The notes beneath the pieces were generated by a model that was not told the DNA's origin, searched no databases, and was given only the letters and a program-made list of their open reading frames with translations. Shown here piece after piece: positions 3,720 to 20,060 of a stretch of 48,661 bases of DNA (its first letter is position 1; each line of letters begins with the position of its first letter). The DNA is taken from positions 1 to 48,661 of the forward strand of contig JBNKUM010000019.1 in the NCBI GenBank assembly GCA_050298595.1. Reading direction: 5' to 3'. The position numbers and the translations under genes are program-made. Source of the DNA: Gammaproteobacteria bacterium. GTDB lineage: Bacteria > Pseudomonadota > Gammaproteobacteria > GCA-001735895.

Positions 3720-4058
3720 GTGGCAGAGTTAATGGATATTTTCGGCGCATTATTACTGGCCGCAGGATCTTTTTTCCTGTTTCTTGGCAGCCTGGGGCTC
3801 ATGCGCATGCCGGATGTCTTCAATCGCATACAGGCAGGCACCAAATCCACCACGCTGGGGACATTGCTGGTGTTGTTAGGAACCACATTCATTCACCCCG
3901 GATGGGGCTTAAAACTGTTATTGATTGGGGTATTCCTGTTGTTTACTAATCCTTTGTCATCACAGGTACTGGCTAATGCTGCTCATCGCAACAAAACCCG
4001 CCAGAGTGACCTGGTCACCGTAGACCACTTAGCTGAAGATCGGAGTAAAAAAGAATGA
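3720..4058 (+). CDS. mbxC: Mrp subunit G (MnhG/MrpG); MbxC
   Basis: GLMRMPDVFNRIQAGTKSTTLG, TNPLSSQVLANAA. Confidence 0.93.
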   Translation: MAELMDIFGALLLAAGSFFLFLGSLGLMRMPDVFNRIQAGTKSTTLGTLLVLLGTTFIHPGWGLKLLLIGVFLLFTNPLSSQVLANAAHRNKTRQSDLVTVDHLAEDRSKKE

Positions 4059-4312
4059 ATGGTTTATTGCTGGCGATAACTCTGCTGCTTGCGATTACCA
4101 TGGTAATCGCTGCACTGATTTCCATCCATCGAGAAAGAAGCCTGCCTATTTCCATCCTGGCGGCCGGTCTGGTTAGCTTGTTGGCCTCGGTACAGTTCCT
4201 GATACTTGCAGCACCGGATGTGGCCATGACCGAAGCAGCCATCGGCAGTGGCTTAACAACCTTTCTGTTCTTTTTTGTTCTGGGCAAGGTACGCCGGGGT
4301 GAACATGATTAA
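4055..4312 (+). CDS. mbxD: MbhD/DUF4040-like small membrane subunit (MrpA C-terminal-like); MbxD
   Basis: LAAPDVAMTEAAIGSGL motif; ATGA overlap with upstream stop. Confidence 0.9.
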   Translation: MNGLLLAITLLLAITMVIAALISIHRERSLPISILAAGLVSLLASVQFLILAAPDVAMTEAAIGSGLTTFLFFFVLGKVRRGEHD

Positions 4313-5006
4313 ACGATTCACCGTACTGCTGATTATTCTAGGTCTGGGTGCTATCTTTGTTCAAATGCTGATGCAATACCAGCCTGATACAACACTTAAC
4401 CAGAGCGGCCTTTACTATGCCGAAAACTCGACTCAGGAAGTGGGTGCCGCTAACATTGTTACCGCCATCATCGTCACCTATCGCGGTCTGGATACGCTTG
4501 GTGAAGTCACCGTGCTGTTTCTCACCGCAGCCATTGTCGGATTGGTGTTGTCGCATGATTACAAAAAGGCTACCCATCGTGTTGAGAATAGACCCGGTCC
4601 GGGCGAACTTTTAATCACCGGTAGTCAGTTGCTGGCACCACTCATTTTATTGTTCGGTGCCTATATCTTTACCAATGGGCACCTTACCCCAGGCGGTGGC
4701 TTTCAGGGTGGTGCAATCCTCGCTTCTGCAGTGCTGTTGCTCTTGCTAACACGCCCGGTTAAACACTTCAGCCATAGATTGATTACCATGCTCGAATCGA
4801 TTTCCGGGCTGCTGTTCGTGGGTATTGGTCTATTAGGCATAGTCCTGGCCGGCGGCTTTCTGGATAACCGTATCCTGCCTGTCGGTGAACTGGGTGATCT
4901 GTTTTCTGCTGGAACTATCCCGATCATCTATTCTCTCATCGGGCTGAAGGTCGGTGCCGAGTTCAGTTCCATGCTGCTTAAACTGGCTGAAACAGAGGAA
5001 TCCTGA
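4305..5006 (+). CDS. mbxF: Mrp subunit B (MnhB/MrpB)-like; MbxF/MbsE
   Basis: NIVTAIIVTYRGLDTLGE and GHLTPGGGFQGG motifs; ATG at 4305 preferred over TTG at 4275. Confidence 0.92.
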   Translation: MIKRFTVLLIILGLGAIFVQMLMQYQPDTTLNQSGLYYAENSTQEVGAANIVTAIIVTYRGLDTLGEVTVLFLTAAIVGLVLSHDYKKATHRVENRPGPGELLITGSQLLAPLILLFGAYIFTNGHLTPGGGFQGGAILASAVLLLLLTRPVKHFSHRLITMLESISGLLFVGIGLLGIVLAGGFLDNRILPVGELGDLFSAGTIPIIYSLIGLKVGAEFSSMLLKLAETEES

Positions 5007-5362
5007 TGGAATACATTGCCCTTGCAACTGGCTTTATGCTGATCTTGATTGGGCTCTACGGAGCACTGACCAGGAGCAATATCCTGCGCATGATCGTGGC
5101 TTTCGCTATCGCCAATACCGGTGTCAATCTGGTACTGATATCTGTCGGCTATATCCGCGGTCGTAGTGCTCCCATCATCGATAAAACCCTGGCGGCTAGT
5201 GAAGCCGCATCACGTATCATCGATCCTCTGCCACAGGCCCTGGTTCTGACGGCAATTGTCATTGGCGTGGGCATTACTGCATTGATGCTGGCCTATGCCT
5301 ATAAGCTCTATACCATGAAAGGCAGTCTGGATATCTCCAGGATCAGGGAGCTGAAATGGTAG
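5006..5362 (+). CDS. mbxG: Mrp subunit C (MnhC/NuoK-like); MbxG
   Basis: DPLPQALVLTAIVIG signature. Confidence 0.93.
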   Translation: MEYIALATGFMLILIGLYGALTRSNILRMIVAFAIANTGVNLVLISVGYIRGRSAPIIDKTLAASEAASRIIDPLPQALVLTAIVIGVGITALMLAYAYKLYTMKGSLDISRIRELKW

Positions 5363-8300
5363 ACGCACTGAACATCATTACCACCACGCTGGGCGCGGCA
5401 TTTTTGCTCGGATTACTGCGTGATGAGTGGCGCACCACAGCTTATATCATCACCCTGCTGACCCTGGGATTTATTAGCTGGGTATCCGCCAGCTGGTTAT
5501 GGTTGTTTGTCTTTGATCCGCGCCCACCAGTAGAAATCCTGACTGCTGGCAGTCAACCACCTTTTGCCATCAATCTGCGTATGGGCCTGACGGAATCTGT
5601 TGCGCTATTGATAGTCACCGTCACCGGTCTGTTGTCAAGCATTTATCTGCGTGACACCCTGTTCCGATTAGGCAGACGCGCAATGGCGGTATTGCTGGTA
5701 TTTATTATGGCCATGTGCGGCATTATCATGACGCGCGATATCTTTAACCTTTTTGTGTTTCAGGAACTGATCGTAATCGCCACCGGCGGTCTCGTCTTAC
5801 TTTCCAGTAATAAGCTGTCGCTTGGTGCCGGGTTCAAATACCTGATCGCTTCACAGGTAGTTTCCATTCTGTTACTCGTGGGCATTATCTTCAGCTACCA
5901 CAGCACCGGCACCTTAAACATTGATGGTATGGCGGCACAGTCTGAACTGCTGATCAAAACAGCCCCATTGGCGTTTTTCCTGCTTATCATTGCACTCATC
6001 ATCGAACTCAAACCCTTTCCCGCCAACGGCTGGGCACTAGATATTTATGAATCGGCGCATCCAGCCTTTTCTGCCATTCTTTCCGCCGCCACGGGCACTG
6101 CCAGTCTGTTTATGATTGATAAGGTATTAACCATCGGTGGTGATAGCTGGCTACCACTGGCGACCGGTGTCGGTCTGCTCAGTTTCATTGGTGCCAATCT
6201 GTTTGCTTTGGCACAAAACCATGACCGTCGTCTGCTGGGTTATTCTTCCGTGGCTCAGATTGGCCTGCTGCTAACTATCATTGGCCAGCGTGACATTCTG
6301 GGCGAAAGCTACCTGTTCATTGCCGGTGGTATCCTGCTCGCCCATGCGGTAGCCAAAGCAGGGCTGTTCTGGTTATCCGGTTTAATCAACGAACGTGAAC
6401 TGACTGCCTGGACTGCCTTGCGCGGGCGTCCATTACTAATCTTTGCCTTCGTCACTTTCATTGCGCTATTGATCGGTCTGCCACCTTTCCCCGGGTTTTA
6501 CGCGAAATGGGAGCTGGTGCATATCCTGGCCAGTGAAGGGCGTATCGCGCTTATCGTGCTGATCCTGTTTGGTGCTTTACTTGAAACGGCTTACCTGTTT
6601 CGCTGGTTTGGCCTGATCCTCAAACATGAAGAGGTAGCGCCAACTGCTGGCTGCCCACCACAGAAGGTAAGCGTCATCTATAGCGCGGTCCTGCTCGCCT
6701 GGGGGCTGGCTTTCATCTGGGGTGAACTATCCGGTTTTGGTAACCAGCTATCCGCTATTCCTCTGTTATTTGCATTGCTTTTGTTGCCGTTGGAATGGCT
6801 ACCAGCCAAAATCAAGAATCTGCTCGCCATCATCGGTCTGGTGGCCTGGTTTATAGTTCAATTCCCCGCTTACGATGCGCTGCAATTAATCTTCGCAGCC
6901 ATCATCCTGCCCGGTGGTGCACTGATACTATTGTCCAGCTTCCACAACCAGGGGCGCAGACTGGGATTTTACCCGGCCAGCCTGTGGATGTTTGCCGGCC
7001 TGAGTATGTTGATCGTGGCCAAAGATTCATTCAGCTTCTTCGCCGCCTGGGAAACCCTGACCATCGGTTCCTATTTCCTGATTCTGCGTGGCAAGCATTC
7101 ACAACCGCATGCCCTGTCCTACATTATGTTTTCACTGGGCGGTGCCTTTCTAATGATGCTGGGGTTTGCACTGGCTGCACAGGGCAACCCGATATTCCTG
7201 CTCACCTCTCTGACAGATGCACCCAGCGAATTTGCACCGTGGATATTCATCCTGCTGGCGATTGGTTTTATGACTAAAACCGCCTCCATTGGTGTGCACA
7301 TCTGGCTGCCGGGCGCGCATGCAGAGGCGGAGTCTGACGTATCACCGTTGCTCTCCGGTATCCTGCTCAAAGCGGGGCTGTTTGGTCTATTCGTATTATT
7401 GATAAACATGGGTAAACAACAGCTATACGGCGTGGAACTGACTCATGTATTGCTATGGATAGGAGCCCTATCCGCCCTGCTGGGCAATATGATGGCCATC
7501 TATCAGGAAGATGCCAAGCGCCTGCTGGCTTACTCATCAATTGCACAGATGGGTTATGCGCTGTTTGGTCTGGCCCTGATGAACCATCTGGGCTGGTTAA
7601 TGACGCTGATGTTTGTGGTCAATCACTATATCTATAAGTCGATGTTGTTCCTGTCAATTGGTGGTGTTGCCAAGCGTACCGGAACCAAGGAAATGTACCG
7701 TATGGGCGGGTTGATCACACTGATGCCACTATCCTTCATTGCAGTACTGATCGGTATCATTGCGGTTTCTGGTGTGCCTCCACTGTCCGGCTTCGGTGGG
7801 CGCTGGATTTTTTACAACGCCATTATGAGCGCAGAATACCGCCTGCCGATGGTCATCATCTTTCTCGCTGGCCCGATTGCATTTCTATACCTGTTTCGCC
7901 TGATTCACACTGTCTTTCTTGGCCAGCTCAAGGATGAACACCGCAAGCTTAAGGAAGCCCCTTTCTGGATCATCCTGCCGCAGATGATTTACGTGGCGTT
8001 CCTGATGATTTTTGCTCTGGTACCGGGTCTCGCGTTACGCCGGGTGGATGCCTATATCAGCCAGTTTTTCCCGAATAACGGTTTGAACTGGGAAGGGCTT
8101 ACCATCACCAGCGATTTTGGTTACTGGAGTCCTGTATCGATCATGATTATCATCGGAGTGATTTTTGTCACCCTGTTTAGCTGGCTGTTGTTTGTCAATC
8201 GCCGTGCACAAAAGGTTAAGCAGTTCAATATCGTGTATGCGGCCGAAAGACCCTACCGCCCCGAGACCACACACTTTGCCTGGAACTTTTTTGCACCCTA

Positions 8301-8481
8301 CCGTAAGGCACTGGGCTTTATGACCCAGCCCTTCGTTACCCACTTCTGGGATACAGTTGCAGACTCATTTCACACCATGGCCGAATTGTTTCGTCGGCTA
8401 TATACCGGTGATGGTCAGACCTATGCGGTGCAGTTGCTGGCCTTTGTGGTCGCGGTCTATTTTCTAAGCAGTGGGGTGTAA
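5356..8481 (+). CDS. mbxH: Fused double antiporter-like (MrpD/NuoM/N-type) subunit; MbxH-MbxH' fusion
   Basis: 1041 aa with two consecutive proton-conducting transporter domains: RDIFNLFVFQE / RRLLGYSSVAQIG / PPFPGFYAKW, then FFAAWE / HIWLPGAHAEA / KRLLAYSSIAQMGY / GVPPLSGFGGRW. Confidence 0.88.
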   Translation: MVDALNIITTTLGAAFLLGLLRDEWRTTAYIITLLTLGFISWVSASWLWLFVFDPRPPVEILTAGSQPPFAINLRMGLTESVALLIVTVTGLLSSIYLRDTLFRLGRRAMAVLLVFIMAMCGIIMTRDIFNLFVFQELIVIATGGLVLLSSNKLSLGAGFKYLIASQVVSILLLVGIIFSYHSTGTLNIDGMAAQSELLIKTAPLAFFLLIIALIIELKPFPANGWALDIYESAHPAFSAILSAATGTASLFMIDKVLTIGGDSWLPLATGVGLLSFIGANLFALAQNHDRRLLGYSSVAQIGLLLTIIGQRDILGESYLFIAGGILLAHAVAKAGLFWLSGLINERELTAWTALRGRPLLIFAFVTFIALLIGLPPFPGFYAKWELVHILASEGRIALIVLILFGALLETAYLFRWFGLILKHEEVAPTAGCPPQKVSVIYSAVLLAWGLAFIWGELSGFGNQLSAIPLLFALLLLPLEWLPAKIKNLLAIIGLVAWFIVQFPAYDALQLIFAAIILPGGALILLSSFHNQGRRLGFYPASLWMFAGLSMLIVAKDSFSFFAAWETLTIGSYFLILRGKHSQPHALSYIMFSLGGAFLMMLGFALAAQGNPIFLLTSLTDAPSEFAPWIFILLAIGFMTKTASIGVHIWLPGAHAEAESDVSPLLSGILLKAGLFGLFVLLINMGKQQLYGVELTHVLLWIGALSALLGNMMAIYQEDAKRLLAYSSIAQMGYALFGLALMNHLGWLMTLMFVVNHYIYKSMLFLSIGGVAKRTGTKEMYRMGGLITLMPLSFIAVLIGIIAVSGVPPLSGFGGRWIFYNAIMSAEYRLPMVIIFLAGPIAFLYLFRLIHTVFLGQLKDEHRKLKEAPFWIILPQMIYVAFLMIFALVPGLALRRVDAYISQFFPNNGLNWEGLTITSDFGYWSPVSIMIIIGVIFVTLFSWLLFVNRRAQKVKQFNIVYAAERPYRPETTHFAWNFFAPYRKALGFMTQPFVTHFWDTVADSFHTMAELFRRLYTGDGQTYAVQLLAFVVAVYFLSSGV

Positions 8482-8482
8482 G

Positions 8483-9388
8483 ATGAGTTTTGAATGGATC
8501 CAGATACCCTACTCTCTGTTAACCCTGTTTATCGTGGTGAACTATGGTTTTATTCTAAATGCTTTAATCGCCAAGATTGCCGCCCGCGTTGGACGCCGTC
8601 ATGGTATCCCTATCTGGCAGAACTACCTTGACCTGATCAAAAACTATTCTATCCGTAGTTCGATTACCCACGGTGTCATGTTCTATCTAGGGCCTGTGTT
8701 CAGACTTTCCGGAGGCGTTGGCCTGATACTGTTTGTACCGACTATTTACGGTTCGGTGATGTTCTCTAACCTGTCTTTTGCCGGAGATTTGATTCTGGCA
8801 CTTTATTTTGTTTTCTTCGGTACTCTGGGCATGGCACTGGGTGCGGGTGAAAGCGGCCATCCCTTTGCTGCTATCGGCGTTTCGCGTGGACTGGCACAGG
8901 TGACTGCAGCCGAATTGCCGTTTGCACTTGCCATTTTTTCCATCGCGTTACAATACCAGACTCTGTCGATCACCGATATCGTCGCTGCTCAACAGGGCAG
9001 CTACCTTAACTGGACCCTGTTTACCAACCCATTCGCAGTGACTGCAGCGATGCTGTCTTTTCTCGGTTCAATGATGCGGCCACCATTTGACGTAGTACTG
9101 GCGCCACAGGAAATTCCTATCGGACCACCTACCGAATATCACTCGTCATATCTGGCCATGATGCAAACCAATCGCGCAATCTTCCCGATTGCCAAGATGG
9201 TGGTCTACATGAATCTGTTTTTTGGTGGCGCGCTAAGCTGGCCTGTTTTCTTCCTCAAGGTTTTCCTGATCTATATGGTGTCAGTTGTGGTGGGCGTAGT
9301 CTTCCCTCGCTTCCATGTGGAACATTCGATTCGCTGGTTCCTGGTTTGGGCTGTGCCTCTGGGTATCATTGCGATCATGGTGGTGTAA
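8483..9388 (+). CDS. mbxM: Complex I subunit 1 family (NuoH-like); MbxM
   Basis: KIAARVGRRHG, RPPFDVVLAPQEIPIGPPTEY; about 8 hydrophobic segments; ATG at 8483. Confidence 0.9.
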   Translation: MSFEWIQIPYSLLTLFIVVNYGFILNALIAKIAARVGRRHGIPIWQNYLDLIKNYSIRSSITHGVMFYLGPVFRLSGGVGLILFVPTIYGSVMFSNLSFAGDLILALYFVFFGTLGMALGAGESGHPFAAIGVSRGLAQVTAAELPFALAIFSIALQYQTLSITDIVAAQQGSYLNWTLFTNPFAVTAAMLSFLGSMMRPPFDVVLAPQEIPIGPPTEYHSSYLAMMQTNRAIFPIAKMVVYMNLFFGGALSWPVFFLKVFLIYMVSVVVGVVFPRFHVEHSIRWFLVWAVPLGIIAIMVV

Positions 9389-9391
9389 GTA

Positions 9392-10033
9392 ATGAAACAA
9401 GAATTGCAAAAACGAATCGTCAAAGGGCCTGGTGGCGTCGATATAGAGGTTGAACCACTGAAGGATTATTACTGCGAGGCTCCACCTTCGGTCATGCCAG
9501 CAGCCTACAGCCGTATCGTCGAGGATCTGTTTAACTGGGCGCGCTCGGAATCGATCTGGATTCTCGGTTTCGGTACCGGTTGTGGTGCGATTGAAATGCG
9601 CCCGCTGATGACCCCGCGTTTTGATGCCTACCGCTACGGTATTCAGTGGCGCCCAACCCCACGTCAGGCTAATCTGTTCGTAATTTCCGGTTATCTCTCA
9701 GTGAAAACCCTGAAGCGTGCAATCCGTTCCTATGAACAGATGCAAAACCCCAAATACGTGGTTGGCCTCGGTTCCTGCACCATTAATGGCGGCATGTACT
9801 GGGATTCCTACAACACAATCAAACGTCTTGATGACTACCTGCCCGTCGACCTCTATATCACTGGCTGTATGCCAAGACCCGAGGCACTGTTACAGGGTTT
9901 TATGGATTTGAAAAAAATAATCCGTGCAGGCAATGCAGAAGGTGCGAACCAGTATGCGGAGAATTTTGAATGGTACAAGGCAAACCAGAAACGGGTCATC
10001 AAGGATTGGGATATGCCCGATTATAGTTGGTAG
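9392..10033 (+). CDS. mbxJ: NuoB-family Fe-S subunit; MbxJ/MbsJ
   Basis: GTGCGAIEM, GSCTINGGMYWDSYN, GCMPRPEA, ENFEWYKANQ; recognisably Mbx-type; no tandem CC as in NuoB. Confidence 0.9.
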   Translation: MKQELQKRIVKGPGGVDIEVEPLKDYYCEAPPSVMPAAYSRIVEDLFNWARSESIWILGFGTGCGAIEMRPLMTPRFDAYRYGIQWRPTPRQANLFVISGYLSVKTLKRAIRSYEQMQNPKYVVGLGSCTINGGMYWDSYNTIKRLDDYLPVDLYITGCMPRPEALLQGFMDLKKIIRAGNAEGANQYAENFEWYKANQKRVIKDWDMPDYSW

Positions 10034-10038
10034 CAGAT

Positions 10039-10572
10039 ATGCAGGCACTTTACGACAAACTCAAACAACACTACGCGCTGGGTGAATTTATCCAGCAACG
10101 CTCCAACCTGTGCTTCTTCAATGTGCCACGGGAACACCTGTCATCCTTATTGCTTTATCTGCGTGACGTAGAGGGTTATACCCACCTGGTACTGCTGACA
10201 GCAGTAGACTGGATTGAGCAGGACCAGTTCCAGTTGACCTACCTGGTCAACAATCGTCTGGCAGCAACTGATATTGGATTGCGCGTGATCATCGACCGCA
10301 ATCCAGCGAGTATGGAAAGTATCCATCATCTATGGCCGACCGCCGCAACCTATCAGCGCGAATTGAAAGAAATGTTTGGTATCGATTTCCCCGGCAGTCC
10401 TCGTATTGACGAAGACTTTATTCTCGAAGGCTGGCAGGACATTCCGCCTTATCGACGTGACTTTGACACCTTAAAATACAGTGAAGAAACCTATCGCGAC
10501 CGACCGGGCCGGGTTACCCATGATCCGACTCAACACATGAAGCAACAACTTTACCCGGATGCGGAGGACTGA
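10039..10572 (+). CDS. mbxK: NuoC-family subunit; MbxK
   Basis: TAVDW, SIHHLWPTA..YQRELKEMFGIDFPG, PPYRRDF; ATG at 10039. Confidence 0.9.
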   Translation: MQALYDKLKQHYALGEFIQQRSNLCFFNVPREHLSSLLLYLRDVEGYTHLVLLTAVDWIEQDQFQLTYLVNNRLAATDIGLRVIIDRNPASMESIHHLWPTAATYQRELKEMFGIDFPGSPRIDEDFILEGWQDIPPYRRDFDTLKYSEETYRDRPGRVTHDPTQHMKQQLYPDAED

Positions 10573-10573
10573 T

Positions 10574-11752
10574 ATGGCCTATACCCCTGATCGCAGTCAA
10601 TACCCGCAAAAGAAGTCCGATGGCACGCTTGATATCGATCTCACTTCGGGCAAATACCTGAAACTCTGGCAGGGCCCACAGCATCCCGGTATTACCGGCA
10701 ATATGTCGATTGAACTAACCGTGTGTGGTGACGAGGTTGTCGAAGGTATCACCCATGTCGGTTATCTGCACCGCGGCTTCGAAAAACTGATGGAACGACG
10801 CAGTTTTATCCAGTGCTTTCCTATCGTCTGTCGTATCTGCGTACCGGAACCAGATTTCAATGAGTACTGTTATGCCGCTGCGGTTGAGGAACTGGCGGAT
10901 GTAGAAGTACCCGAACGCGCCAACTGGATCCGCACACTGATCCTGGAGATGGGTCGTATCAACAGTTATCTGATGTATCTGGGTGGTCAATCCGGAGCTC
11001 TGGGTCAGGCGGTAATAGGCCAGTGGGCAACCTATGTACGCGACCTGATGCTGGACCGCTTCGAAGAACTTACCGGAGCCCGTATCTATCACATGTTCAT
11101 CATACCTGGTGGGGTACGCGACGACCTGCCCGTTGGCTTTAAAAAGCGCATGAAAGATACCCTGAAGGAGATTGAAAAAACAATGCAGGATATCTACAAC
11201 GTGATGTTCTGCAATGCGGTCTTCCACAAAAGAACTGTAGGTGTTGGAGTAATAGAAAACCGTTGGCTGGATCGCTACGGTGTTAGCGGCCCCTGCATAC
11301 GTGCGGCCGGTGTGGCGCGTGATGTGCGTAAAGACCAGCCTTATCTGGTTTACCAGCATCTCGACTTTGACCCCGTTATCGGTCACAACTCCGATATTTA
11401 CACCCGAGCAGATGTACGCCGTCGCGACCTGCTGATGTCGGTCGACCTGATCCGACAGATTCTGTCACGCATGCCGGAGCGTAAGGAAGCCATGATGGCG
11501 ACTATTCCTAACGTATTGCACTGGAAGATCCCGCCGGGTGAAACCTATGTGCGAGGTGAATGTTCTCGTGGTGAGTACGGTTATTATCTGGTCACCGATG
11601 GAAGCGGTTATCCGCGACGAGTCAATGTACGAGGCCCCTCCTACACCCATGCGATGGCATTGTTTGAACGCATGGTAGTGAATTGCAATATCGCCGATGT
11701 TGCGGCACTACTGGTGTCTCTACATACCTATCCACCGGAGATCGAACGTTAA
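10574..11752 (+). CDS. mbxL: NuoD-family subunit; MbxL/MbsL (no NiFe site)
   Basis: GPQHPG, GYLHRGFEKL, RICVPE, ECSRGE, VRGPSY, C-terminal HTYPPEIER; GGAGG RBS before ATG at 10574. Confidence 0.9.
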   Translation: MAYTPDRSQYPQKKSDGTLDIDLTSGKYLKLWQGPQHPGITGNMSIELTVCGDEVVEGITHVGYLHRGFEKLMERRSFIQCFPIVCRICVPEPDFNEYCYAAAVEELADVEVPERANWIRTLILEMGRINSYLMYLGGQSGALGQAVIGQWATYVRDLMLDRFEELTGARIYHMFIIPGGVRDDLPVGFKKRMKDTLKEIEKTMQDIYNVMFCNAVFHKRTVGVGVIENRWLDRYGVSGPCIRAAGVARDVRKDQPYLVYQHLDFDPVIGHNSDIYTRADVRRRDLLMSVDLIRQILSRMPERKEAMMATIPNVLHWKIPPGETYVRGECSRGEYGYYLVTDGSGYPRRVNVRGPSYTHAMALFERMVVNCNIADVAALLVSLHTYPPEIER

Positions 11753-11764
11753 GAGCCTGATGCC

Positions 11765-13570
11765 ATGAGTATTCGTAATATCCTTTCTCCATTCACTGCC
11801 TGGAAAAACCTGTTCCGCGACCCAGTCAGTATCGCTGATCCATTTAATGATCGCCCTGGCAGTATGCGCTATCGGGGCTTCCACCAGAACGACATGGATA
11901 AGTGCATAGGCTGTGGCACCTGTGAAGCGATTTGTCAGAATGCCGCTATCGACATGGTTCCAGTCGAAGGCATACAAACCACTAAGGAAGATTCCGGATT
12001 ACGCCCGCATATAGATTACGGTCGCTGTTGCTGGTGTGCGCTGTGCGTGGATATCTGTATGACCGGTTCGCTGACCATGTCCAACGAATACAAATGGATC
12101 GAAAGTGACCCCGACAAGTTTCGCTTCACCCCGGGTGTCGACAAAAAATTCTGGGATCACTCAGCACTCGGTTATCACCGCCCCGAAGGTCATCAGTTAA
12201 GCGGTCGGGTTCGGGTCGAGATGGAAGAAATGGATCCGGAGCAACGGCTCGATTCCTTTGCTGAAATCGTTAAGGGCTACGATGTCGAACAGGCCAAAGC
12301 CGAAGCCGATCGTTGCGTAGCCTGCGGCCTGTGCGTGGCCACCTGCCCTATCCACATGGCGATACCCGATTATATTGCTGCGGTTCGTGCAGGAGACTAT
12401 GAGGAAGGACTACGCCTGTTGTACGACAGTAATCCGTTTTCCCAGGTTTGTGGCCGAGTCTGTACACGCAAGTGCGAAACCTCCTGTGCCGCACGTCATG
12501 AGGGTGATCCAATTGCCATCCGCTGGCTCAAACGTCATATCACCGAGCAGGTGCCTTATGACCGTTATAGAACCATAGTGGGTGAACCCGCCGAAGCGAC
12601 AGGCCGAAAAGTAGCAATCATCGGTGCCGGACCGGCAGGACTAACGACTGCTTTCGACCTTGCTAAAAAGGGCCATAGCGTGACAGTATTTGAATCACGA
12701 AAAAAACCGGGGGGCATGATGCGCTATGGTATCCCTGAATATCGCCTGCCCTATGATCGTCTGGATGCTGATATTAATATGATTCTGTCGTATGGAGTCG
12801 AATTAAAACTCAATACTCAAATCGGTAAAGATATCAGTATGGAGGAGCTTCATAAGCAGTTTGATGCGGTATTACTCGCCAGCGGTCTACATCAGGGACG
12901 ATCCACACGCATACCTGGATCTGAACATTCTAAAACCGTATCAGCCATTGAGCTGTTAAGAAAAATCACCGACAAGTCCCGCTTCGCTGTTCCCCAAAAA
13001 GCAGTGGTCATAGGTGGTGGTAATGTGGCCATGGATATAGCACGCAGCCTGGCCAGATTACAGAAAAAGAAATATGGTGAAATACATGTCACGGTAACGG
13101 CTCTGGAAGATGAGCATCATATGCTCGCAGACGAGGATGAAATACGTGAGGCCAAAGAAGAAGGCTTAACAATTTTACCTGGACGTGGACCGCGCCAGTG
13201 CATCATCGAGAATAAAAAATTAACCGGCCTGGAAACGGTATGCTGTACCTCGATTTTTGATGAAGAAGGGCGCTTTCACCCCACTTATGATGAATCCGAT
13301 ATCTGCATACATGACGTTGACATGGTGGTTGAAGCGATTGGCCAGGCTGCTGACGTCACCTATCTGGGTTATGAAGTAACCGAAGCGCTTGACTGGAATC
13401 GCGGAAGACTGGTCATAGACAGCAACGGTCAAACTGCCGAACCCTGGCTATGGGCCGCTGGAGATATGGTCGAAGGACCAGATGTGGTTCATGCCATAGC
13501 TGCTGGCCATAGAGCCGCCGAGAGCATCCATGCAAGCCTGACAGTAAGTGCGGAGAGATCAAAAGAATGA
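11765..13570 (+). CDS. MbxN/NuoI-type 2x[4Fe-4S] domain fused to a GltD/SudA/DsrL-like FAD-dependent NAD(P)H oxidoreductase
   Basis: RYRGFH, CIGCGTCEAIC, CCWCALCVDIC (NuoI part); then RCVACGLCVATCP, CGRVCTRKCETSC, IIGAGPAG, GGMMRYGIPEYRLP, VIGGGNVAMD, AAGDMV. Confidence 0.9.
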   Translation: MSIRNILSPFTAWKNLFRDPVSIADPFNDRPGSMRYRGFHQNDMDKCIGCGTCEAICQNAAIDMVPVEGIQTTKEDSGLRPHIDYGRCCWCALCVDICMTGSLTMSNEYKWIESDPDKFRFTPGVDKKFWDHSALGYHRPEGHQLSGRVRVEMEEMDPEQRLDSFAEIVKGYDVEQAKAEADRCVACGLCVATCPIHMAIPDYIAAVRAGDYEEGLRLLYDSNPFSQVCGRVCTRKCETSCAARHEGDPIAIRWLKRHITEQVPYDRYRTIVGEPAEATGRKVAIIGAGPAGLTTAFDLAKKGHSVTVFESRKKPGGMMRYGIPEYRLPYDRLDADINMILSYGVELKLNTQIGKDISMEELHKQFDAVLLASGLHQGRSTRIPGSEHSKTVSAIELLRKITDKSRFAVPQKAVVIGGGNVAMDIARSLARLQKKKYGEIHVTVTALEDEHHMLADEDEIREAKEEGLTILPGRGPRQCIIENKKLTGLETVCCTSIFDEEGRFHPTYDESDICIHDVDMVVEAIGQAADVTYLGYEVTEALDWNRGRLVIDSNGQTAEPWLWAAGDMVEGPDVVHAIAAGHRAAESIHASLTVSAERSKE

Positions 13571-14082
13571 GCAAAAAACACAGTTCTGAAGGCAGTAAAG
13601 GCTACGCCAAACTGAAAAAAAAGCAGACGATTGAAGAGATACTTGAAACCGCCATTGGCTTTGAGAGAACGGCGCGTGATTTCTATAGCGAATTATGTGA
13701 CACTGTAAGCAAACCTATACGTGGCTTGATTCAGGAGTTGGCTGATGAAGAAGCTGAGCATTACCGACTGTTTACTGAATTAAAAGAAAGAGCAGATATC
13801 CAACAGCATATCAGCGATAAAATCCAGACACCACCTAATGACCACCGCTTTAGCGACTATCTGAAGCAACCCGACCTGGGCAAGGATCCGAGCGATCAGG
13901 ATATTTTGCTGTATGCTCTGGGGCGTGAACAGGCTGCGATGGAACAGTACTCTGCACTAGCCGAAGAGACACCTGCTGGAGCTATAGCTGATCTATTTCA
14001 GTACCTGGCTCATGAAGAACTTGAACATAAAAATGAGCTTGAAAAGCTCTATTATGAAATGATTCATAAAGGAGGTGTATAA
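13567..14082 (+). CDS. Ferritin-like / rubrerythrin-family di-iron protein
   Basis: AIGFE...FY...LADEEAEH and ALGRE...Y...LAHEELEH duplicated E/ExxH pattern; ATGA overlap with upstream gene. Confidence 0.85.
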   Translation: MSKKHSSEGSKGYAKLKKKQTIEEILETAIGFERTARDFYSELCDTVSKPIRGLIQELADEEAEHYRLFTELKERADIQQHISDKIQTPPNDHRFSDYLKQPDLGKDPSDQDILLYALGREQAAMEQYSALAEETPAGAIADLFQYLAHEELEHKNELEKLYYEMIHKGGV

Positions 14083-14120: not shown

Positions 14121-14810
14121 TTATTGCTGTTTTTTATTCACCGCATCTATTCCCTTATGCGGAATAAAGATACCTATTCCCATCAATTGCCTATCACCCA
14201 TTCCCTGTTCCTGTAGCATTAACGATTGAGCCACATCCAGATCACTCACCATGAGTTTTCGGGTTAATACGATGCCACTGGAGGTCTGGTGCGAGAGTAA
14301 CTTACCACTCATCATTTTTTTAACCTGTATCCCCATCTCACGTAACTGTTGCGCCATATTATTTAAAAATAGCGTTTCATCCTCTGTGCCCTCGGTATCC
14401 ATATAGCGTGCAAACAGGGTTGTAAGTCGGCTGAGTTTGCGGGTACGAAAGTCACCGATCTTCAGCGCATGGCCGTGGATATCGAGTGTTTTACCGGTTA
14501 GTGCCCGGGCATCTTCGAGACGACTTTGAGGTAGTCGAATCATCAATTTTGTGCGCCTGGATACGCAGAGCACATCCTGCTCTGGATCATCTGGGCGCAT
14601 CCACCCATGAGCGGATTCGGCAACATGGATTTGATGGATAGCTGCCAGTGGTTCGTCGCCAATCCAGGGAAGGTATTGCTGAATTTGTTGGGATAAAACG
14701 AAGCCATGATCCAGCGGTAATGTTTTGCACTCTATGGAGAACAGCAAATCCTGAACATCTTCATGAAGCTGCTCTGTATCATTATTATCATCATCGTCCT
14801 GCCAATACAT
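14121..14810 (-). CDS. cas6: Cas6-family RAMP endoribonuclease-like protein (Cmx6 / type I-MYXAN-like), orphan
   Basis: LPLDHG, SRRTKLMIRLP, LTGKTLDI and C-terminal Gly-rich loop LQEQGMGDRQLMGIGIFIP (GhGxxxxhGhG); ATG at 14810, 2 nt after the upstream stop. Confidence 0.82.
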   Translation of the reverse strand: MYWQDDDDNNDTEQLHEDVQDLLFSIECKTLPLDHGFVLSQQIQQYLPWIGDEPLAAIHQIHVAESAHGWMRPDDPEQDVLCVSRRTKLMIRLPQSRLEDARALTGKTLDIHGHALKIGDFRTRKLSRLTTLFARYMDTEGTEDETLFLNNMAQQLREMGIQVKKMMSGKLLSHQTSSGIVLTRKLMVSDLDVAQSLMLQEQGMGDRQLMGIGIFIPHKGIDAVNKKQQ

Positions 14811-14812
14811 GT

Positions 14813-15001
14813 TCAACACACCGATGTGAATGTCGCTTCCAGTCGATCTTCCCAGTCAGGCGGGGTATCTGAGTATGGAGGTTTTATATCCATACGAAAA
14901 AATCGTTCACCCGCTGCTGCTCGTCTGGATATCTCTTCCTTTAAATCCTCAAATGATTCCATTTCAGGGTTTTGTAATAAAATTTCGCTTAACCACAGCA
15001 T
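14813..15001 (-). CDS. Small acidic protein (62 aa) between tauD-like and cas6 genes
   Basis: MLWLSEILLQ...FRMDIKPPYSDTPPDWEDRLE; GAGG RBS; tightly packed with neighbours. Confidence 0.8.
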   Translation of the reverse strand: MLWLSEILLQNPEMESFEDLKEEISRRAAAGERFFRMDIKPPYSDTPPDWEDRLEATFTSVC

Positions 15002-15034
15002 ATAAAGACCTCGGGTATAAATTCTAATGTCTAA

Positions 15035-15916
15035 TCAATGGATATTGATTCGATTGTAATAACGCGCGCGATAGAAAACGCGTTTGCTATCAGGACTATC
15101 AGTAAATCCACTACGTGTGTGCAATACATTATTATTGATAACGCCCTCGCCGGCATTAAGGCGATAGCGTATATGATAGGGGGAGTCTAATTCCAGATAC
15201 TGCTCCAGACAAGCCAGAGCTTCGCGGGTCAATCCATCATCGGCCCATATTATATTGCGCTTTCTTTTACTATATCGCATAGCTAGAGCATGGTCTTGCT
15301 CCTGTAGAAACACAGCACTACAGGTCTGGGGACGGATTAGCACACCATTCTCTATGTTTTCGGGTATACACATAACCTGAGGCTGAGACAGGGCTTTGAT
15401 AAATTCCGGATTTTGATTGCGCAGATGGATATACAGCATATCAGGATCCAGTAACTGGTTCTCTCCTCCTTCAGCAGCCGGTTGCTCGCAATGCAGCACC
15501 ATCGCCAGTACCCGCTGATGTAAAGGATTATAGTATCCATCGGTATGCCAGCCGATCGCTTTATTCGAATAAGGGATATACTGATGTGCGCGGCCATTGT
15601 CCTGTACGGTGAGCTTTGTGGTTCTATCTTCGCGCGCACAGAGATTTTTATCCAGTTCATGCAGCCCCATTTGTTGACCTATATACTTTACAGCATCCAG
15701 GTGATTGTCTATCTCACCAGCCATGCGGTATAAAACAAAGTTATAGGCACGGATGTGCTCATCGATAATATTTAATGCCAAATCATCGATAGTACCGTCA
15801 TTCTGGATATCTATAATGAGAGGAAAATCATTTGATTTTCTCTTTTCATAAGCAGCCTGCTTGTATTCAACCCATTGGAGGTAGGCTGCTTCATCGTTTA
15901 AATCCAGGTGTCCCAT
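15035..15916 (-). CDS. TauD/TfdA-family Fe(II)/2-oxoglutarate dioxygenase-like protein
   Basis: WHTDGYYN (HxD), LHCEQPAAEGGENQLLD, NNVLHTRSGF (distal His and Arg). Confidence 0.88.
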   Translation of the reverse strand: MGHLDLNDEAAYLQWVEYKQAAYEKRKSNDFPLIIDIQNDGTIDDLALNIIDEHIRAYNFVLYRMAGEIDNHLDAVKYIGQQMGLHELDKNLCAREDRTTKLTVQDNGRAHQYIPYSNKAIGWHTDGYYNPLHQRVLAMVLHCEQPAAEGGENQLLDPDMLYIHLRNQNPEFIKALSQPQVMCIPENIENGVLIRPQTCSAVFLQEQDHALAMRYSKRKRNIIWADDGLTREALACLEQYLELDSPYHIRYRLNAGEGVINNNVLHTRSGFTDSPDSKRVFYRARYYNRINIH

Positions 15917-15982: not shown

Positions 15983-15998
15983 TATCCCTATGGGGGTA
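15983..15998. promoter_or_regulatory. Putative NarL-family 7-2-7 site in the tauD/dsrA divergent promoter region
   Basis: TATCCCT-AT-GGGGGTA; each half is one mismatch from the NarL heptamer TACYYMT. Confidence 0.45.
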
Positions 15999-16142
15999 AT
16001 GATATGCCAATACGCCCCCCCATCAGGTGAGTTACTTATTACAGCCGACCTGTCTAAAATCCTCGCATTCTTGTAATACCTTGTTACAGGACCAATAAAC
16101 TATAACTCATCAGTTAATTAGAGTCTTAAAGGAGACTATGCA

Positions 16143-17393
16143 ATGGCAAAGTATGATACTCCAATGCTTGACGAGCTTGAAAACGGCCCATGGCCCAGCT
16201 TTATTTCAGGCATCAAACGTTTACGCGACGATCACCCGGAAAAACGTATTAATGAAGTTGCCGGCAGCCTGTTAGGCCAGCTGGAACATTCTTACGAAAC
16301 TCGTAAAGGTTACTGGAAAGGCGGTACTGTTTCTGTATTCGGTTACGGTTCAGGCATTATTCCTCGCTTCTCTGAAGTAGGTAAGGCTTTCCCGGAATCT
16401 AAAGAATTCCACACTGTTCGCGTTCAACCACCTGCGGGTAATCACTACACGACTGGTATGTTACGTCAGTTAGCTGATAGCTGGGAAAAGCATGGTTCAG
16501 GCCTGGTAACCTTCCACGGACAAACCGGTAACATTATGTTTATTGGTGTTGATACCGAATCTACCCAGCATTTCTTTGATGAAATCAATGATTACGGCTG
16601 GGATCTGGGTGGTGCTGGTCCTTGTGTACGTACAGGTATGTCCTGTGTCGGTGCTTCACGCTGTGAACAGTCTTGCCTTGATGAGCAAAGAGTACACCGC
16701 TCATTGCAGAACAACTTCACCGATGATGTTCACCGCCCTGCTCTGCCATATAAATTCAAATTCAAAATCTCTGGTTGTGGTAATGATTGTCAGAACGCCA
16801 TTGAACGCTCTGATTTTGCAGTTATCGGCACCTGGCGCGATGACATGAAGGTTAACCAGGAAGCCTTCAAGGGCTATCTCGATACTAAAGGTCGCCAGTA
16901 CATTATCGATAATGTAATCACCCGTTGCCCAACTCAGGCCTTAAGCCTGGCTGATGACGATGCGCTGGTTGTTGAAAACCGCAACTGTGTTCGCTGCATG
17001 CATTGCCTGAATGTTCTGCCTAAAGCGCTCTCTCCTGGAGATGACAAGGGTGCAACTATTTGTATTGGTGGAAAGCGTACACTGAAGATTGGTGATTTGA
17101 TGGGTACGGTTGTAGTGCCATTCAAAAAGCTGGATACAGAAGAAGATTACGAAGAAATCGTTGAGTTGGCTGAAGAAATCATCGACTTCTGGGCTGAAAA
17201 CGGTCTGGAACACGAACGTTGTGGTGAGATGATCGAACGTATTGGTCTGGCTAATTTTCTGGAAGGTATTGGCGTTGATGTTGATCCGAATATGGTTAAC
17301 AACCCTCGCCAAAGCTCCTACGTCCGTATGGATGAATGGGACCAGGAAGCCGAGAAATGGTTTGAGCGTAAAGCAGAAGAAGCTAGCGCCTAA
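16143..17393 (+). CDS. dsrA: Reverse dissimilatory sulfite reductase alpha subunit
   Basis: TPMLDELENGPWPSF, YWKGG, CVRTGMSCVG, YKFKFKISGCGNDC, CVRCMHC; AAGGAG RBS. Confidence 0.98.
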   Translation: MAKYDTPMLDELENGPWPSFISGIKRLRDDHPEKRINEVAGSLLGQLEHSYETRKGYWKGGTVSVFGYGSGIIPRFSEVGKAFPESKEFHTVRVQPPAGNHYTTGMLRQLADSWEKHGSGLVTFHGQTGNIMFIGVDTESTQHFFDEINDYGWDLGGAGPCVRTGMSCVGASRCEQSCLDEQRVHRSLQNNFTDDVHRPALPYKFKFKISGCGNDCQNAIERSDFAVIGTWRDDMKVNQEAFKGYLDTKGRQYIIDNVITRCPTQALSLADDDALVVENRNCVRCMHCLNVLPKALSPGDDKGATICIGGKRTLKIGDLMGTVVVPFKKLDTEEDYEEIVELAEEIIDFWAENGLEHERCGEMIERIGLANFLEGIGVDVDPNMVNNPRQSSYVRMDEWDQEAEKWFERKAEEASA

Positions 17394-17455
17394 GCGCTGG
17401 ATTCAACTCTTCTTTCCGATTTTTTAAAATAATTTATAAACTATAGGTTAAAGAT

Positions 17456-18529
17456 ATGTCAGACGCTCCACGTCCACCTATTGAATCAGGCTGTCCTGAT
17501 GGTTTCCAATACATGCATCCCATGATGCGTAAACACTATGGCAACTGGGATTATCATGAAGATCCTCAGCCAGGTGTCCTGAAACACGTTGCCAAGAATG
17601 GTGATGCGCTATACACCGTTCGTGCAGGTACTCAACGTATTCTTGATGTATACACATTGCGCCTGTTATGCGATATCGGCGATGAATTCGCTGACGGTCA
17701 TGTTCACTTTACTATTCGTAGTAACATGGAATTTATGGTTAGCGATGAATCTCGTGTGCAACCTCTGATTGAAAAGCTTGAATCCCATGGCTTTGTTGTT
17801 GGCGGAACTCGTAACTCAGTTGCGATGATCTCTCATACTCAGGGCTGGTTACATTGTGATATCCCTGGTACTGACGCCTCTGGTGTTGTTAAGTCCATGA
17901 TGGATGAGCTGATCGGCGAATTCAAAAACTGGAACATGCCTAACCGCGTTCATTTGACTACTTCCTGCTGTCAGATTAACTGTGGTGGTCAGGGTGACAT
18001 CGCTATTAATGTTCAGCACACCAAGCCGCCCAAGATTAACCACGATCTGGTTGCCAACATCTGTGAACGTCCTTCTGTTGTGGCACGTTGCCCGGTTGCT
18101 GCGATTCGGCCTGCAATGGTTGATGGCAAGCCATCTCTGGAAGTTGATGAGAAGAAATGCATCTGCTGTGGTGCCTGTTTCCCTCCTTGTCCTCCAATGC
18201 AAATCAATGATGCAGAGCATTCAAAACTGGCTATCTGGGTTGGTGGTAATCACTCCAATGCTCGTAGCAAACCAACTTTCCAGAAGTTAGTGGCTGCTGG
18301 TATTCCAAACAACCCTCCTCGTTGGCCTGAAGCTACTGCAATCGTTAAAAAGATTCTGAAGGTTTACAAAGAAGACGCTAAGGATTGGGAGCGTATCAAT
18401 GACTGGATCGATCGTGTGGGCTGGCCTCGTTTCTTCGAACTGACTGAACTGCCGTTCACCAAGTTCCATATCGATAACTGGCGTGGTGCTCGCAATAGTC
18501 TTAATGCATCTGCTCATATCCGTTTCTAA
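17456..18529 (+). CDS. dsrB: Reverse dissimilatory sulfite reductase beta subunit
   Basis: HTQGWLHC, SCCQINCG, CICCGACFPPC, NNPPRWPE, RVGWPRFF. Confidence 0.98.
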   Translation: MSDAPRPPIESGCPDGFQYMHPMMRKHYGNWDYHEDPQPGVLKHVAKNGDALYTVRAGTQRILDVYTLRLLCDIGDEFADGHVHFTIRSNMEFMVSDESRVQPLIEKLESHGFVVGGTRNSVAMISHTQGWLHCDIPGTDASGVVKSMMDELIGEFKNWNMPNRVHLTTSCCQINCGGQGDIAINVQHTKPPKINHDLVANICERPSVVARCPVAAIRPAMVDGKPSLEVDEKKCICCGACFPPCPPMQINDAEHSKLAIWVGGNHSNARSKPTFQKLVAAGIPNNPPRWPEATAIVKKILKVYKEDAKDWERINDWIDRVGWPRFFELTELPFTKFHIDNWRGARNSLNASAHIRF

Positions 18530-18546
18530 GGGACTGAGGAATATAG

Positions 18547-18939
18547 ATGAAATTTGCTATTCAAATTAACGAAGGGCCTTTTACCCATCAGGCTGCAGAT
18601 ACTGCTTATCAGTTTACCAAGGCAGCACTGGAGAATGGTCATGAAATCTTCCGTGTGTTCTTTTACCACGATGGCGTAAATAACGGCACCATGTACGGTG
18701 TACCACCTGTTGATGATCGCAATGTTTCGGCCATCTGGTCGGAACTTGCTGAGAAATATGACCTTGATCTCGTGGTCTGTGTGGCGGCGGCTCAACGTCG
18801 CGGCATCATGGATGAAGATGAAGCCAAGCGTCACGGCAAAGGTGCATCCAATATCGCCCCTGGATTTCGTATTTCAGGATTGGGTCAGTTGATCGAAGCC
18901 GGTATTCAGGCTGATCGTCTTCTGGTATTTGGTGATTAG
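18547..18939 (+). CDS. dsrE: Sulfurtransferase DsrE (TusD family)
   Basis: VFFYHDGV, active-site VVCVAAAQRRG, SGLGQL. Confidence 0.97.
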   Translation: MKFAIQINEGPFTHQAADTAYQFTKAALENGHEIFRVFFYHDGVNNGTMYGVPPVDDRNVSAIWSELAEKYDLDLVVCVAAAQRRGIMDEDEAKRHGKGASNIAPGFRISGLGQLIEAGIQADRLLVFGD

Positions 18940-18948
18940 GAGTTAGTT

Positions 18949-19356
18949 ATGTCAGAAACAAAAAAATTCGTATATGTAAACAGAAAAGCTCCTTACGGTA
19001 CCGTTTACGCTTTGGAATCACTGGAAGTTGTTCTGATCGGTGCAGCTTTTGAACAGGAAGTTCAGTTGTTATTCATTGATGATGGTGTTTATCAGTTAAC
19101 CAAGGGCCAGTCTACGGAAGGTGTTGGAATGAAGAACTTTTCCAAGACTTACGCAGCACTGGGTGACTATGATGTTAATCAGATTTATGTCGATGAGCAG
19201 TCACTGAAAGATCGTGGCCTGACCATGGATGATCTTCAGGCATTAACCTATGAAGATGAAGACGACGATTATGCAGAGAAAAGTTCTATGCATCTGGTTA
19301 ACCGAGAACAGTTAGCTGATTTAATCAGCAATGCTGACGTGTTGTTAAATTTCTAA
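18949..19356 (+). CDS. dsrF: DsrF (TusC family)
   Basis: RKAPYGTVYALESLE, FIDDGVYQL. Confidence 0.97.
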   Translation: MSETKKFVYVNRKAPYGTVYALESLEVVLIGAAFEQEVQLLFIDDGVYQLTKGQSTEGVGMKNFSKTYAALGDYDVNQIYVDEQSLKDRGLTMDDLQALTYEDEDDDYAEKSSMHLVNREQLADLISNADVLLNF

Positions 19357-19367
19357 GGAGAACTGAT

Positions 19368-19679
19368 ATGTCAACATTACACACTGTAAACAAGTCGCCT
19401 TTTGAAAGAAATTCACTCGACACCTGTTTGTCTCTGGTCAGCAATGATTCAACTGTATTGCTAATTGAAGATGGTGTTTCTGGTGCATTACAAAATACGA
19501 CAGCCAGCTCAAGCATTTCGGATGCGATGAGTAAAGGAGTAAAATTCGCCGTTCTGGGTGAAGATCTGGGTGCTCGTGGTCTATCAACAGACCGAGTTTT
19601 AGATGGTATATCTGTAGTTGATTATGCCGGATTTGTTCAGCTAGCAGCTGATCACGACAACGTTCAAAGCTGGTTGTAA
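19368..19679 (+). CDS. dsrH: DsrH (TusB family)
   Basis: LHTVNKSPF, LLIEDGV, DLGARGL, VDYAGFV. Confidence 0.97.
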   Translation: MSTLHTVNKSPFERNSLDTCLSLVSNDSTVLLIEDGVSGALQNTTASSSISDAMSKGVKFAVLGEDLGARGLSTDRVLDGISVVDYAGFVQLAADHDNVQSWL

Positions 19680-19727
19680 ACGTTTAATTTTTTAAGCTTT
19701 ATTTAAAGCAAATTTTGGAGAAATATC

Positions 19728-20060
19728 ATGCCTTTAGAAGTGAATGGTAAGAGTTACGAAACTGATGAAGAAGGTTACCTGGCTAACCTGAATGAGTGGA
19801 ACGAAGAAGTTGCTGCAGCATTAGCTGCTGCTGATGATGCAGAACTGACTTCAAGCCATTGGGAAGTCATTAACTTCCTGCGTGAATACTACGAAGAGTA
19901 TCAAATTGCTCCTGCAGTACGCGTTTTAACCAAAGCCATTGGTAAAAAACTGGGTAAAGACAAAGGAAACAGCAAGTACCTGTACGAACTGTTCCCTTAC
20001 GGCCCAGCAAAGCAAGCCTGTAAATACGCTGGCTTGCCTAAGCCTACTGGTTGCGTGTAA
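19728..20060 (+). CDS. dsrC: DsrC sulfur carrier with both C-terminal cysteines
   Basis: LFPYGPAKQACKYAGLPKPTGCV. Confidence 0.98.
   Translation: MPLEVNGKSYETDEEGYLANLNEWNEEVAAALAAADDAELTSSHWEVINFLREYYEEYQIAPAVRVLTKAIGKKLGKDKGNSKYLYELFPYGPAKQACKYAGLPKPTGCV

Follow-up and report, generated by a model that had tools for sequence, protein, structure and literature searches.

A Cas6-family protein, probably outside any CRISPR-Cas system, is a conserved companion of reverse dissimilatory sulfite reductase genes in Gammaproteobacteria

Cas proteins that act outside canonical adaptive immunity are described, in the review passages on Cas6 and stand-alone Cas proteins, for Tn7-like CRISPR-associated transposons (CAST), type IV systems, I-E-like Streptomyces systems with a STAND NTPase and the haloarchaeal HRAMP modules (PMC8730458, PMC6452270). 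As presented there, these derived modules are multi-Cas effectors tied to mobile elements or defence, and the same passages contain no case involving dsr genes. This is distinct from the locus reported here, in which a lone Cas6-family gene lies in an energy-metabolism cluster, next to the genes for reverse dissimilatory sulfite reductase (rDsr), on a stretch of 48,661 nucleotides from a gammaproteobacterium (contig JBNKUM010000019.1, assembly GCA_050298595.1; hereafter the window). Our analysis indicates, with a probability of roughly 0.9, that this Cas6-like gene belongs to a separate subfamily outside any CRISPR-Cas system and is part of a conserved module that co-occurs with DsrA. Our literature search, which covered work outside subscription journals and supplementary tables, found no paper linking Cas6 to dsr genes and no genetic or expression data on a role of the module in sulfur oxidation; the Cas6 mentions in PMC10952691 and PMC5728499 refer to ordinary CRISPR loci. 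The genes at the centre of the comparison are the following.

14121–14819, minus strand: Cas6-like protein of the Cmx6 subfamily, dsr-linked, 232 aa from a GTG start (PF09559, TIGR02807, AlphaFold2 (AF2) and Foldseek)

14813–15001, minus strand: conserved 62-aa protein with no family matched, an open reading frame (ORF) whose stop overlaps or abuts the start of the Cas6-like gene

15035–15916, minus strand: TauD/TfdA-family Fe(II)/2-oxoglutarate dioxygenase-like protein, 293 aa, the first gene of the module (PF02668)

16143–20060, plus strand: dsrABEFHC, the start of the rDsr operon, divergent from the module (ORFs, TIGR02064)

The ORFs agree with a preliminary description of this DNA, made from the sequence alone, which had placed a tauD-like gene, a 62-aa gene and cas6 on one strand facing dsrA. 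The identity of dsrA is supported by a TIGR02064 match of 622 bits at 16167–17378 and by tblastn relatives of 75–98% identity, and 226 nt of divergent intergenic region separate it from the TauD-like gene. The true start of the Cas6-like protein is probably the ATG at 14810, giving a 229-aa product that begins MYWQDDDD, because most relatives align from query residue 4.

The Cas6-like protein resembles type I-B/I-MYXAN Cas6 (Cmx6) in family, fold and sequence motifs. It matches PF09559 with 191.6 bits (cut-off 26.7) in a profile search and the curated NCBIfam equivalog TIGR02807 cas6_cmx6 with 120 bits (cut-off 98.85). In a sequence search against the PDB, the sole solved relative was 8fcj_B (E 2.9e-7 from one sequence and 2.6e-28 from a profile of 150 rows); chain B of 8fcj and 8fcu is the Cas6 of a type I-B CAST Cascade. 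The AF2 model, made from this 150-row alignment, is of high predicted quality (pLDDT 91.1, pTM 0.87), with lower values only at residues 1–20 and 61–80, and adopts the RAMP fold of two ferredoxin-like RNA recognition motif domains. Foldseek placed 8fcu_B and 8fcj_B on top (TM 0.74–0.79; E 3.3e-16 for 8fcu_B), followed by 5yi6, 3qjj, 3pkm and 2y8w, all strong matches being Cas6 or Cse3. The assignment to Cmx6-type Cas6 in the preliminary description thus stands on both profile and fold, and the features that it had singled out occur in the protein and are kept in relatives: the Gly-rich loop, the His of LPLDHG and the acidic N-terminus.

Residue-level comparison of 100 dsr-type with seven CRISPR-linked sequences reveals a common core and a set of clade-specific additions. 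The CRISPR-linked sequences are Cas6 proteins from canonical loci, one found among the close relatives of the window (L051) and six on cyanobacterial plasmids (L132–L136, L138) annotated cas6-cas3-cas8-cas7-cas5-cas4/1-cas2. Both groups have D34, H35, R92, Q200, G203, G205, G211, G213 and F215, including the Gly-rich loop QxxGxGxxxxxGCGxF; H35 is 100% conserved in both, and the four glycines are 98–100% conserved in the dsr type and identical in the seven CRISPR-linked proteins. Taken together, the Asp-His pair and the Gly-rich loop are kept at 93–100% across the 100 dsr-type sequences. By comparison, W3 of the acidic N-terminal extension (MxWQ(E/D)), W49, H59, H62, R86, K165, R184, H218 and K219 occur only in the dsr clade, as does a 10-residue NGWxRP insert. 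The N-terminal extension, the insert, His59, His62 and His218, together with adjacency to dsrA, about 22% identity to 8fcu_B and the lack of cas neighbours, of an array and of Cas1 dependence, set the dsr type apart from type I-B/I-MYXAN Cas6.

A quick IQ-TREE phylogeny recovered the dsr-linked clade, separate from CRISPR-linked Cmx6, that the preliminary description had envisaged. The tree held 75 rows (the window, all of L032–L051 and L132–L138, every second of L052–L131, and seven chosen extras), 33 of 108 rows having been left out for speed, and it split 67 gammaproteobacterial or dsr-type rows from the seven CRISPR-linked ones with an SH-aLRT of 99 and a branch of 1.26+1.26. Copies that are not adjacent to dsrA were placed inside the dsr clade. 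A separate observation concerns the Gloeobacter morelensis plasmid pGMOR1 (L137, 3974–4765), where an annotated Cmx6-type cas6 lies in non-CRISPR surroundings beside genes for a protein of the 3'-phosphoadenosine 5'-phosphosulfate reductase family, a cupin and hypothetical proteins; this may be another, independent recruitment of a Cmx6-type Cas6.

The genomic distribution of the gene follows that of dsrA. Among the close relatives, a homologue is found in 41 of 61 genomes (33 of 36 within the same family), almost always as a single copy, and the sequence within 8 kb on either side of 20 such homologues has dsrA divergent upstream in 17; the other three are a locus ending at the contig edge (L045), a relocated copy (L040) and the true CRISPR locus L051. 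A class-wide sample of 401 evenly drawn genomes, in which the unpublished G343, G075 and G177 are counted, was searched with the profiles PF09559, TIGR02064 (DsrA) and PF01867 (Cas1). PF09559 matched in 125 genomes and DsrA in 127 (strong matches, of which 120 pass the curated cut-off and the rest are truncated at contig ends), and 120 genomes have both. In 90 of these 120, the pair shares a contig at a distance of no more than 6 kb, with gaps of 677–4511 nt and divergent orientation throughout; in the remaining 30 they are on different contigs (25) or distant on one contig (5). The seven DsrA-positive genomes without PF09559 have completeness of 55–99%. Five genomes have PF09559 and no DsrA: G057 has a canonical locus (WYL regulator, a 194-aa Cas6, Cas3, Cas8b, an unassigned 326-aa ORF, Cas5 and Cas4/Cas1) with a 21-repeat array, PF09559 and Cas1 share a contig in G343, and in G202, G168 and G293 the contig bearing the dsr-type module runs out within the TauD-like gene.

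A scan of a collection of genomes from 185,579 species returned at least 580 relatives, and the best 80 loci kept from it have dsrA divergent upstream in 70 cases; six of the other ten are truncated by the contig edge, with less than 2 kb of upstream sequence, and L068, L121, L125 and L126 have enough, yet no dsrA. Named carriers are Thiorhodococcus minor, Allochromatium warmingii and Halochromatium glycolicum, further ones being Thiothrix, Thiogranum, Sulfuricaulis, Ca. Thiosymbion and Ca. Parabeggiatoa. A phylum-level sample of 351 genomes gave five PF09559 matches, all from the same class, and is uninformative on rDsr organisms of other classes. The occurrence of a similar trio beside dsrA in other sulfur oxidisers, named in the preliminary description, is borne out by the fetched loci and the class survey, and the linkage to dsr is conserved. 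In many drafts the contig is interrupted a short way upstream of the module, either around dsrA or within the TauD-like gene, and cas6 lies about 1.2–1.4 kb from the contig start in G001, G002, G006, G017, G018 and G024; such recurrent breaks suggest an assembly problem at dsrAB, for instance multiple copies or strain variants.

Could the protein nevertheless be an ordinary Cas6 whose CRISPR array lies elsewhere in the genome or was left unassembled? The curated cas6_cmx6 model is passed, drafts are often without arrays, and 64 of the 125 PF09559 carriers have a Cas1 match. Cas1 is somewhat commoner in carriers than in non-carriers (86 of 276), a count that weighs against separation from CRISPR-Cas. 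The genome itself points the other way. The source assembly (5.49 Mb, 119 contigs, 98.63% complete) contains a single PF09559 match and none for Cas1 (PF01867), Cas2 (PF09827), Cas3_HD (PF18019) or DevR/Cas7 (PF01905). There is no spaced repeat array in the window, and a k-mer scan for spaced repeats over all 119 contigs found only 47-nt tandem repeats and no CRISPR array, in line with the earlier reading that the window has no array and no other cas gene; neither effector or adaptation genes nor an array thus places the locus in a CRISPR-Cas system. Draft assemblies often miss CRISPR arrays, and we regard the array as not found rather than proven absent because a draft can lose it; arrays were readily detected beside the CRISPR-linked relatives.

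Nor does the wider distribution fit an ordinary Cas6. Cas1 was not detected in 61 of the 125 carriers, among them genomes of 1.1 Mb and the single-contig genomes G054, G061, G080, G149 and G197, which bears on the earlier question of whether genomes lacking CRISPR still carry the gene. The protein falls in a clade separate from CRISPR-linked Cas6, its fixed place adjoins dsrA and not cas genes, and G342, which has both kinds, carries the CRISPR-linked copy as a separate second gene adjoining Cas1. We therefore consider an ordinary Cas6 role highly improbable. Two repeat types were also recorded: the 47-nt unit, in three to four tandem copies with similar flanks at five or more places (C40:36625, C49:4764, C51:44518, C56:53893 and C114:794), looks like a dispersed repeat element and not CRISPR, and tandem 30-nt and 39-nt repeats lie within an ORF at 32209–32520 of the window.

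Comparison of loci shows that the module is larger than the trio, its usual order being the TauD-like gene, the 62-aa gene, an optional gene for a protein of about 230 aa, the Cas6-like gene, a DsrC/TusE paralogue and a gene for a protein of about 65–85 aa. Across the 80 scanned loci, the TauD-like gene is present in 68, the 62-aa gene in 75 and the DsrC/TusE paralogue in 70. The trio of the preliminary description is therefore present as a cassette, and its extent was understated, since the last two genes lie about 11.5 kb away in the window.

2333–2653, minus strand: cysteine-less DsrC/TusE-family paralogue of the RspA type, C-terminus ...RKGGY (TIGR03342)

1987–2196, minus strand: conserved protein of about 70 aa, the last gene of the module, no family matched (tblastn to L038)

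The module holds together elsewhere as well. In two 1.1-Mb genomes (G222, G381) the TauD-like, 62-aa, Cas6-like, DsrC-like and small last genes are packed against dsrA, and in L146–L148 the module has moved off dsrA and its genes are still together. By co-occurrence and adjacency with dsrAB it thus belongs to the accessory genes of the dsr cluster. In the window, the Cas6-like and DsrC-like genes, which elsewhere directly follow one another, are split by a plus-strand block of higher G+C content (2945–14082, 11.5 kb; G+C 0.49–0.53 vs about 0.39–0.45 around it). The block encodes subunits of a Mrp/Mbh-type membrane complex (MnhE/G/B, NuoK-, NuoH-, 20K-, 30K- and 49K-like proteins and an antiporter-like protein of 1041 aa), a 601-aa GltD/NfnB-like flavoprotein and a rubrerythrin, and the same neighbours are present at the same-genus locus L032.

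The partner proteins can be placed in known families to different degrees. The TauD-like protein matches PF02668 with 63.5 bits (cut-off 27) and, like taurine dioxygenase and the gamma-butyrobetaine and trimethyllysine hydroxylases, has the HxD...H motif of two histidines and one carboxylate; among 90 homologues, WHTDGYY, which contains HxD, is found in 88 and the distal-His motif NN[VI]LHxR in 79 by strict pattern. It belongs to the TauD/TfdA family on these grounds and, unlike the named enzymes, reaches no NCBIfam equivalog (best 44 bits vs a cut-off of 400). Of the 80 loci, 12 have a module without this gene, and six of these 12 are titled as Chromatiaceae genera or symbionts. The 62-aa protein matches no Pfam or NCBIfam family and has homologues at 83 fetched loci, with M1, L4, S5, L20, P41, P47, W50 and F58 invariant in a 54-row alignment. 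Its AF2 model (pLDDT 87.2) consists of three helices and a conserved loop and has no PDB fold match at E<=0.001, and an Atlas search brought up no clusters but its own, which bear the automatic name 'sulfur relay protein DsrC' and no Pfam family. Complex prediction for the Cas6-like and 62-aa proteins gave scores of 0.02 and 0.01, which neither support nor oppose binding. The optional protein of about 230 aa is helical, belongs to no family and gave only weak tetratricopeptide-repeat-like leads (0.82–0.83) in an Atlas search; in this genome an unlinked homologue is encoded at C8:216183–216893 (L140 3184–3897), after a 109-aa family-less ORF and adjoining a gene for a major facilitator superfamily transporter.

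The DsrC-like protein matches TIGR03342 with 70.3 bits (cut-off 53.5), within the range of the module paralogues (70–91 bits; the L041 copy also matches PF04358 with 101.8 bits), and is 88% identical to the product of the gene directly after cas6-like in L033. The module paralogues listed all end ...GLPxxxRKGGY and lack both C-terminal cysteines of DsrC, whose arm ends ...GLPKPTGCV. We file the protein as a DsrC/TusE/RspA-family paralogue, and not as DsrC, because these cysteines are missing, using the family name given in PMC8477390. The protein of about 70 aa has no NCBIfam match, is 76% identical by tblastn to the product of the gene after DsrC-like in L038 and is kept in the 1.1-Mb genomes. 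RspA-type proteins are thought to be regulatory.

As to function, we tentatively rank a model in which the protein still binds or processes RNA in a sequence-specific manner, in connection with dsr expression, above a protein scaffold, while placing it somewhat below even odds. The Asp-His dyad, invariant among the CRISPR-linked Cas6 proteins compared, and the Gly-rich loop are kept, and recognition of a specific short RNA stem-loop may therefore be retained. Of a possible endoribonuclease activity, the sequence shows the conserved Asp34-His35; that this His is catalytic in Cmx6-type enzymes is our assumption. The Cas6-like protein would recognise a specific short stem-loop, may cut at the base of the stem, and would act as a dedicated post-transcriptional factor for the expression of dsr or of its own module. 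The other module proteins would partner with it or modulate it, and the O2-dependent TauD-like dioxygenase could render the step oxygen-responsive. The most likely target would be the small G/C stem-loop of a TATCCC-N4-GGGATA palindrome in the shared intergenic region.

15983–16027, no strand assigned: palindrome and C-rich box CCCCCCCATCAGG in the shared intergenic region, a candidate RNA hairpin or DNA operator

The palindrome, TATCCC-N4-GGG(G)TA, occupies 15983–15998 and the C-rich box CCCCCCCATCAGG lies downstream at 16015–16027; both are invariant in eight aligned family-level sequences. Read in the dsrA sense, they form one predicted hairpin, and the 171-nt region has a z-score of -2.06. 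The core CCCNANNGG was found in 48 of the 87 regions upstream of dsrA, whereas 200 shuffles had a mean of 6.4 and a maximum of 13. Among 70 distinct instances, the second flank pair is complementary in 50 (24.7 when shuffled) and the third in 35 (25.0), values reached by none of 1000 shuffles, with A-T and C-G pairs both occurring. The repeats beside CRISPR-linked Cmx6 genes form comparably short GCC-loop-GGC stems, to which the palindrome stem would be alike in size and type.

Several observations, including some from the same searches, tell against an RNA target of this kind. The core is present in 48 of the 87 upstream regions and not in all, the shuffle control ignores relatedness, and symmetric changes in a palindrome fit RNA and DNA alike. 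No hairpin is repeated along the dsr operon in a repeat and inverted-repeat search of window positions 1–32000, an Rfam scan of the same interval gave only sub-threshold NiCo and GlmZ matches unrelated to the locus, and the intergenic regions between the Cas6-like and DsrC-like genes at 78 loci (13–406 nt) have no common hairpin. In addition, 8fcj_B has Asn where the dsr clade has His35, so that this His is not universal in the family. Symbiont-sized genomes usually shed regulators, and the retention of the whole module in 1.1-Mb genomes of this size therefore speaks for a core function more than for regulation. The earlier proposal of a repurposed Cas6 tied to dsr is strongly supported by co-occurrence, adjacency, Cas1-less carriers, clade and fold, and its suggestion that the long dsr mRNA is the target finds no repeated operon hairpin behind it.

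The palindrome fits a dimeric DNA-binding regulator equally well, and the element is a candidate only. It could be the operator at which a transcription factor binds DNA, for example through the helix-turn-helix surface of the DsrC-like paralogue. The Cas6-like protein would then act on another RNA, perhaps a small RNA or a tRNA that undergoes sulfur-dependent modification, comparable to the TusE-MnmA-tRNA relay. The symmetric 16-mer motif is typical of dimeric regulators; the DsrC/TusE family includes TusE, a relay protein of tRNA thiolation, and the NCBIfam TusE model matches the paralogue with an E of 1.3e-22, below its cut-off. The paralogue, however, lacks the cysteine that TusE uses, the module contains no tRNA or modification enzyme gene at the loci read, and the link to tRNA is drawn by analogy alone, so that we judge this arrangement improbable. 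Genome-wide searches with the palindrome, which yielded 12 and 10 loose matches, brought no sulfur regulon to light; its lone close copy, at C50:13925, lies upstream of Sel1, MoxR-AAA and VWA genes.

A role at the protein level is the other alternative to RNA recognition, in which the Cas6 fold would serve as a non-nucleolytic scaffold or adaptor. A complex with the 62-aa protein, the DsrC paralogue and the protein of about 70 aa would assist rDsrAB-DsrC assembly, protection, or the delivery of sulfur or electrons, and the TauD-like enzyme would modify a component or a small molecule. Such a role accords with the near one-to-one co-occurrence of PF09559 and DsrA, with the complete module in the two 1.1-Mb genomes, with the conserved flexible C-terminus ...GLPxxxRKGGY of the DsrC-family paralogue, and with the conserved surface residues of the clade's own (W3, W49, H59, H62, NGWxRP, H218 and K219) that are absent from CRISPR-linked relatives; the Rfam, repeat and intergenic searches, moreover, pinned down no RNA target. 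Conservation of the Asp-His pair and the Gly-rich loop at 93–100% would be unexpected had RNA binding been lost, and in other rDsr lineages DsrAB can, as far as is known, do without the module. We regard the scaffold as rather unlikely.

Hints of expression come from RNA-library contigs of a relative (one study, 86–90% identity), which cover the cas6, 62-aa and TauD-like genes, one contig spanning 14513–15073; this is a weak hint that the three genes are expressed. Matches to sequencing runs comprise small shares (0.05–0.08) of four metagenome runs, from contigs only, and X3 and X4 cover dsrA alone. A sigma-70 scan of the intergenic region found no promoter on the dsrA strand. Upstream of dsrA, further small hairpins at 16069–16091 and 16123–16139 are kept in the family-level alignment, and the latter (AGTCTTAAAGGAGACT) pairs part of the Shine-Dalgarno sequence. 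Contigs of the same RNA library end at 16097 and 16181 with adapter-like loose letters (one study, contigs only), and these could be the 5' ends of RNAs, one upstream of dsrA and one just within it.

In summary, a Cas6-family protein has very probably left CRISPR immunity to become a fixed companion of the rDsr genes in Gammaproteobacteria, and core energy metabolism thus seems to have co-opted a Cas protein. The most far-reaching form of the favoured RNA role, in which a domesticated Cas6 endoribonuclease is an RNA factor needed for rDsr in nearly all dsr-carrying Gammaproteobacteria, works with the cysteine-less DsrC paralogue and small partners, and is gated by the O2-dependent TauD-like hydroxylase, is doubtful. 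Compact Cas6 proteins of new RNA specificity could serve as tools. At present the module is annotated as a stray 'type I-MYXAN Cas6/Cmx6', so that CRISPR systems are over-counted in sulfur oxidisers and what is likely to be an accessory or regulatory system of rDsr goes unnoticed. For sulfur microbiology, a conserved and unstudied module of five or six genes is added next to dsrAB. For CRISPR evolution, the protein would clearly exemplify how one Cas protein alone can move from defence to housekeeping metabolism, with strong selection on the dsr-linked Cas6 across hundreds of lineages, minimal symbiont-sized genomes included. If the most far-reaching form of the RNA role is true, it would be the first Cas protein in core energy metabolism and would reveal a previously unseen layer of control over sulfur oxidation.

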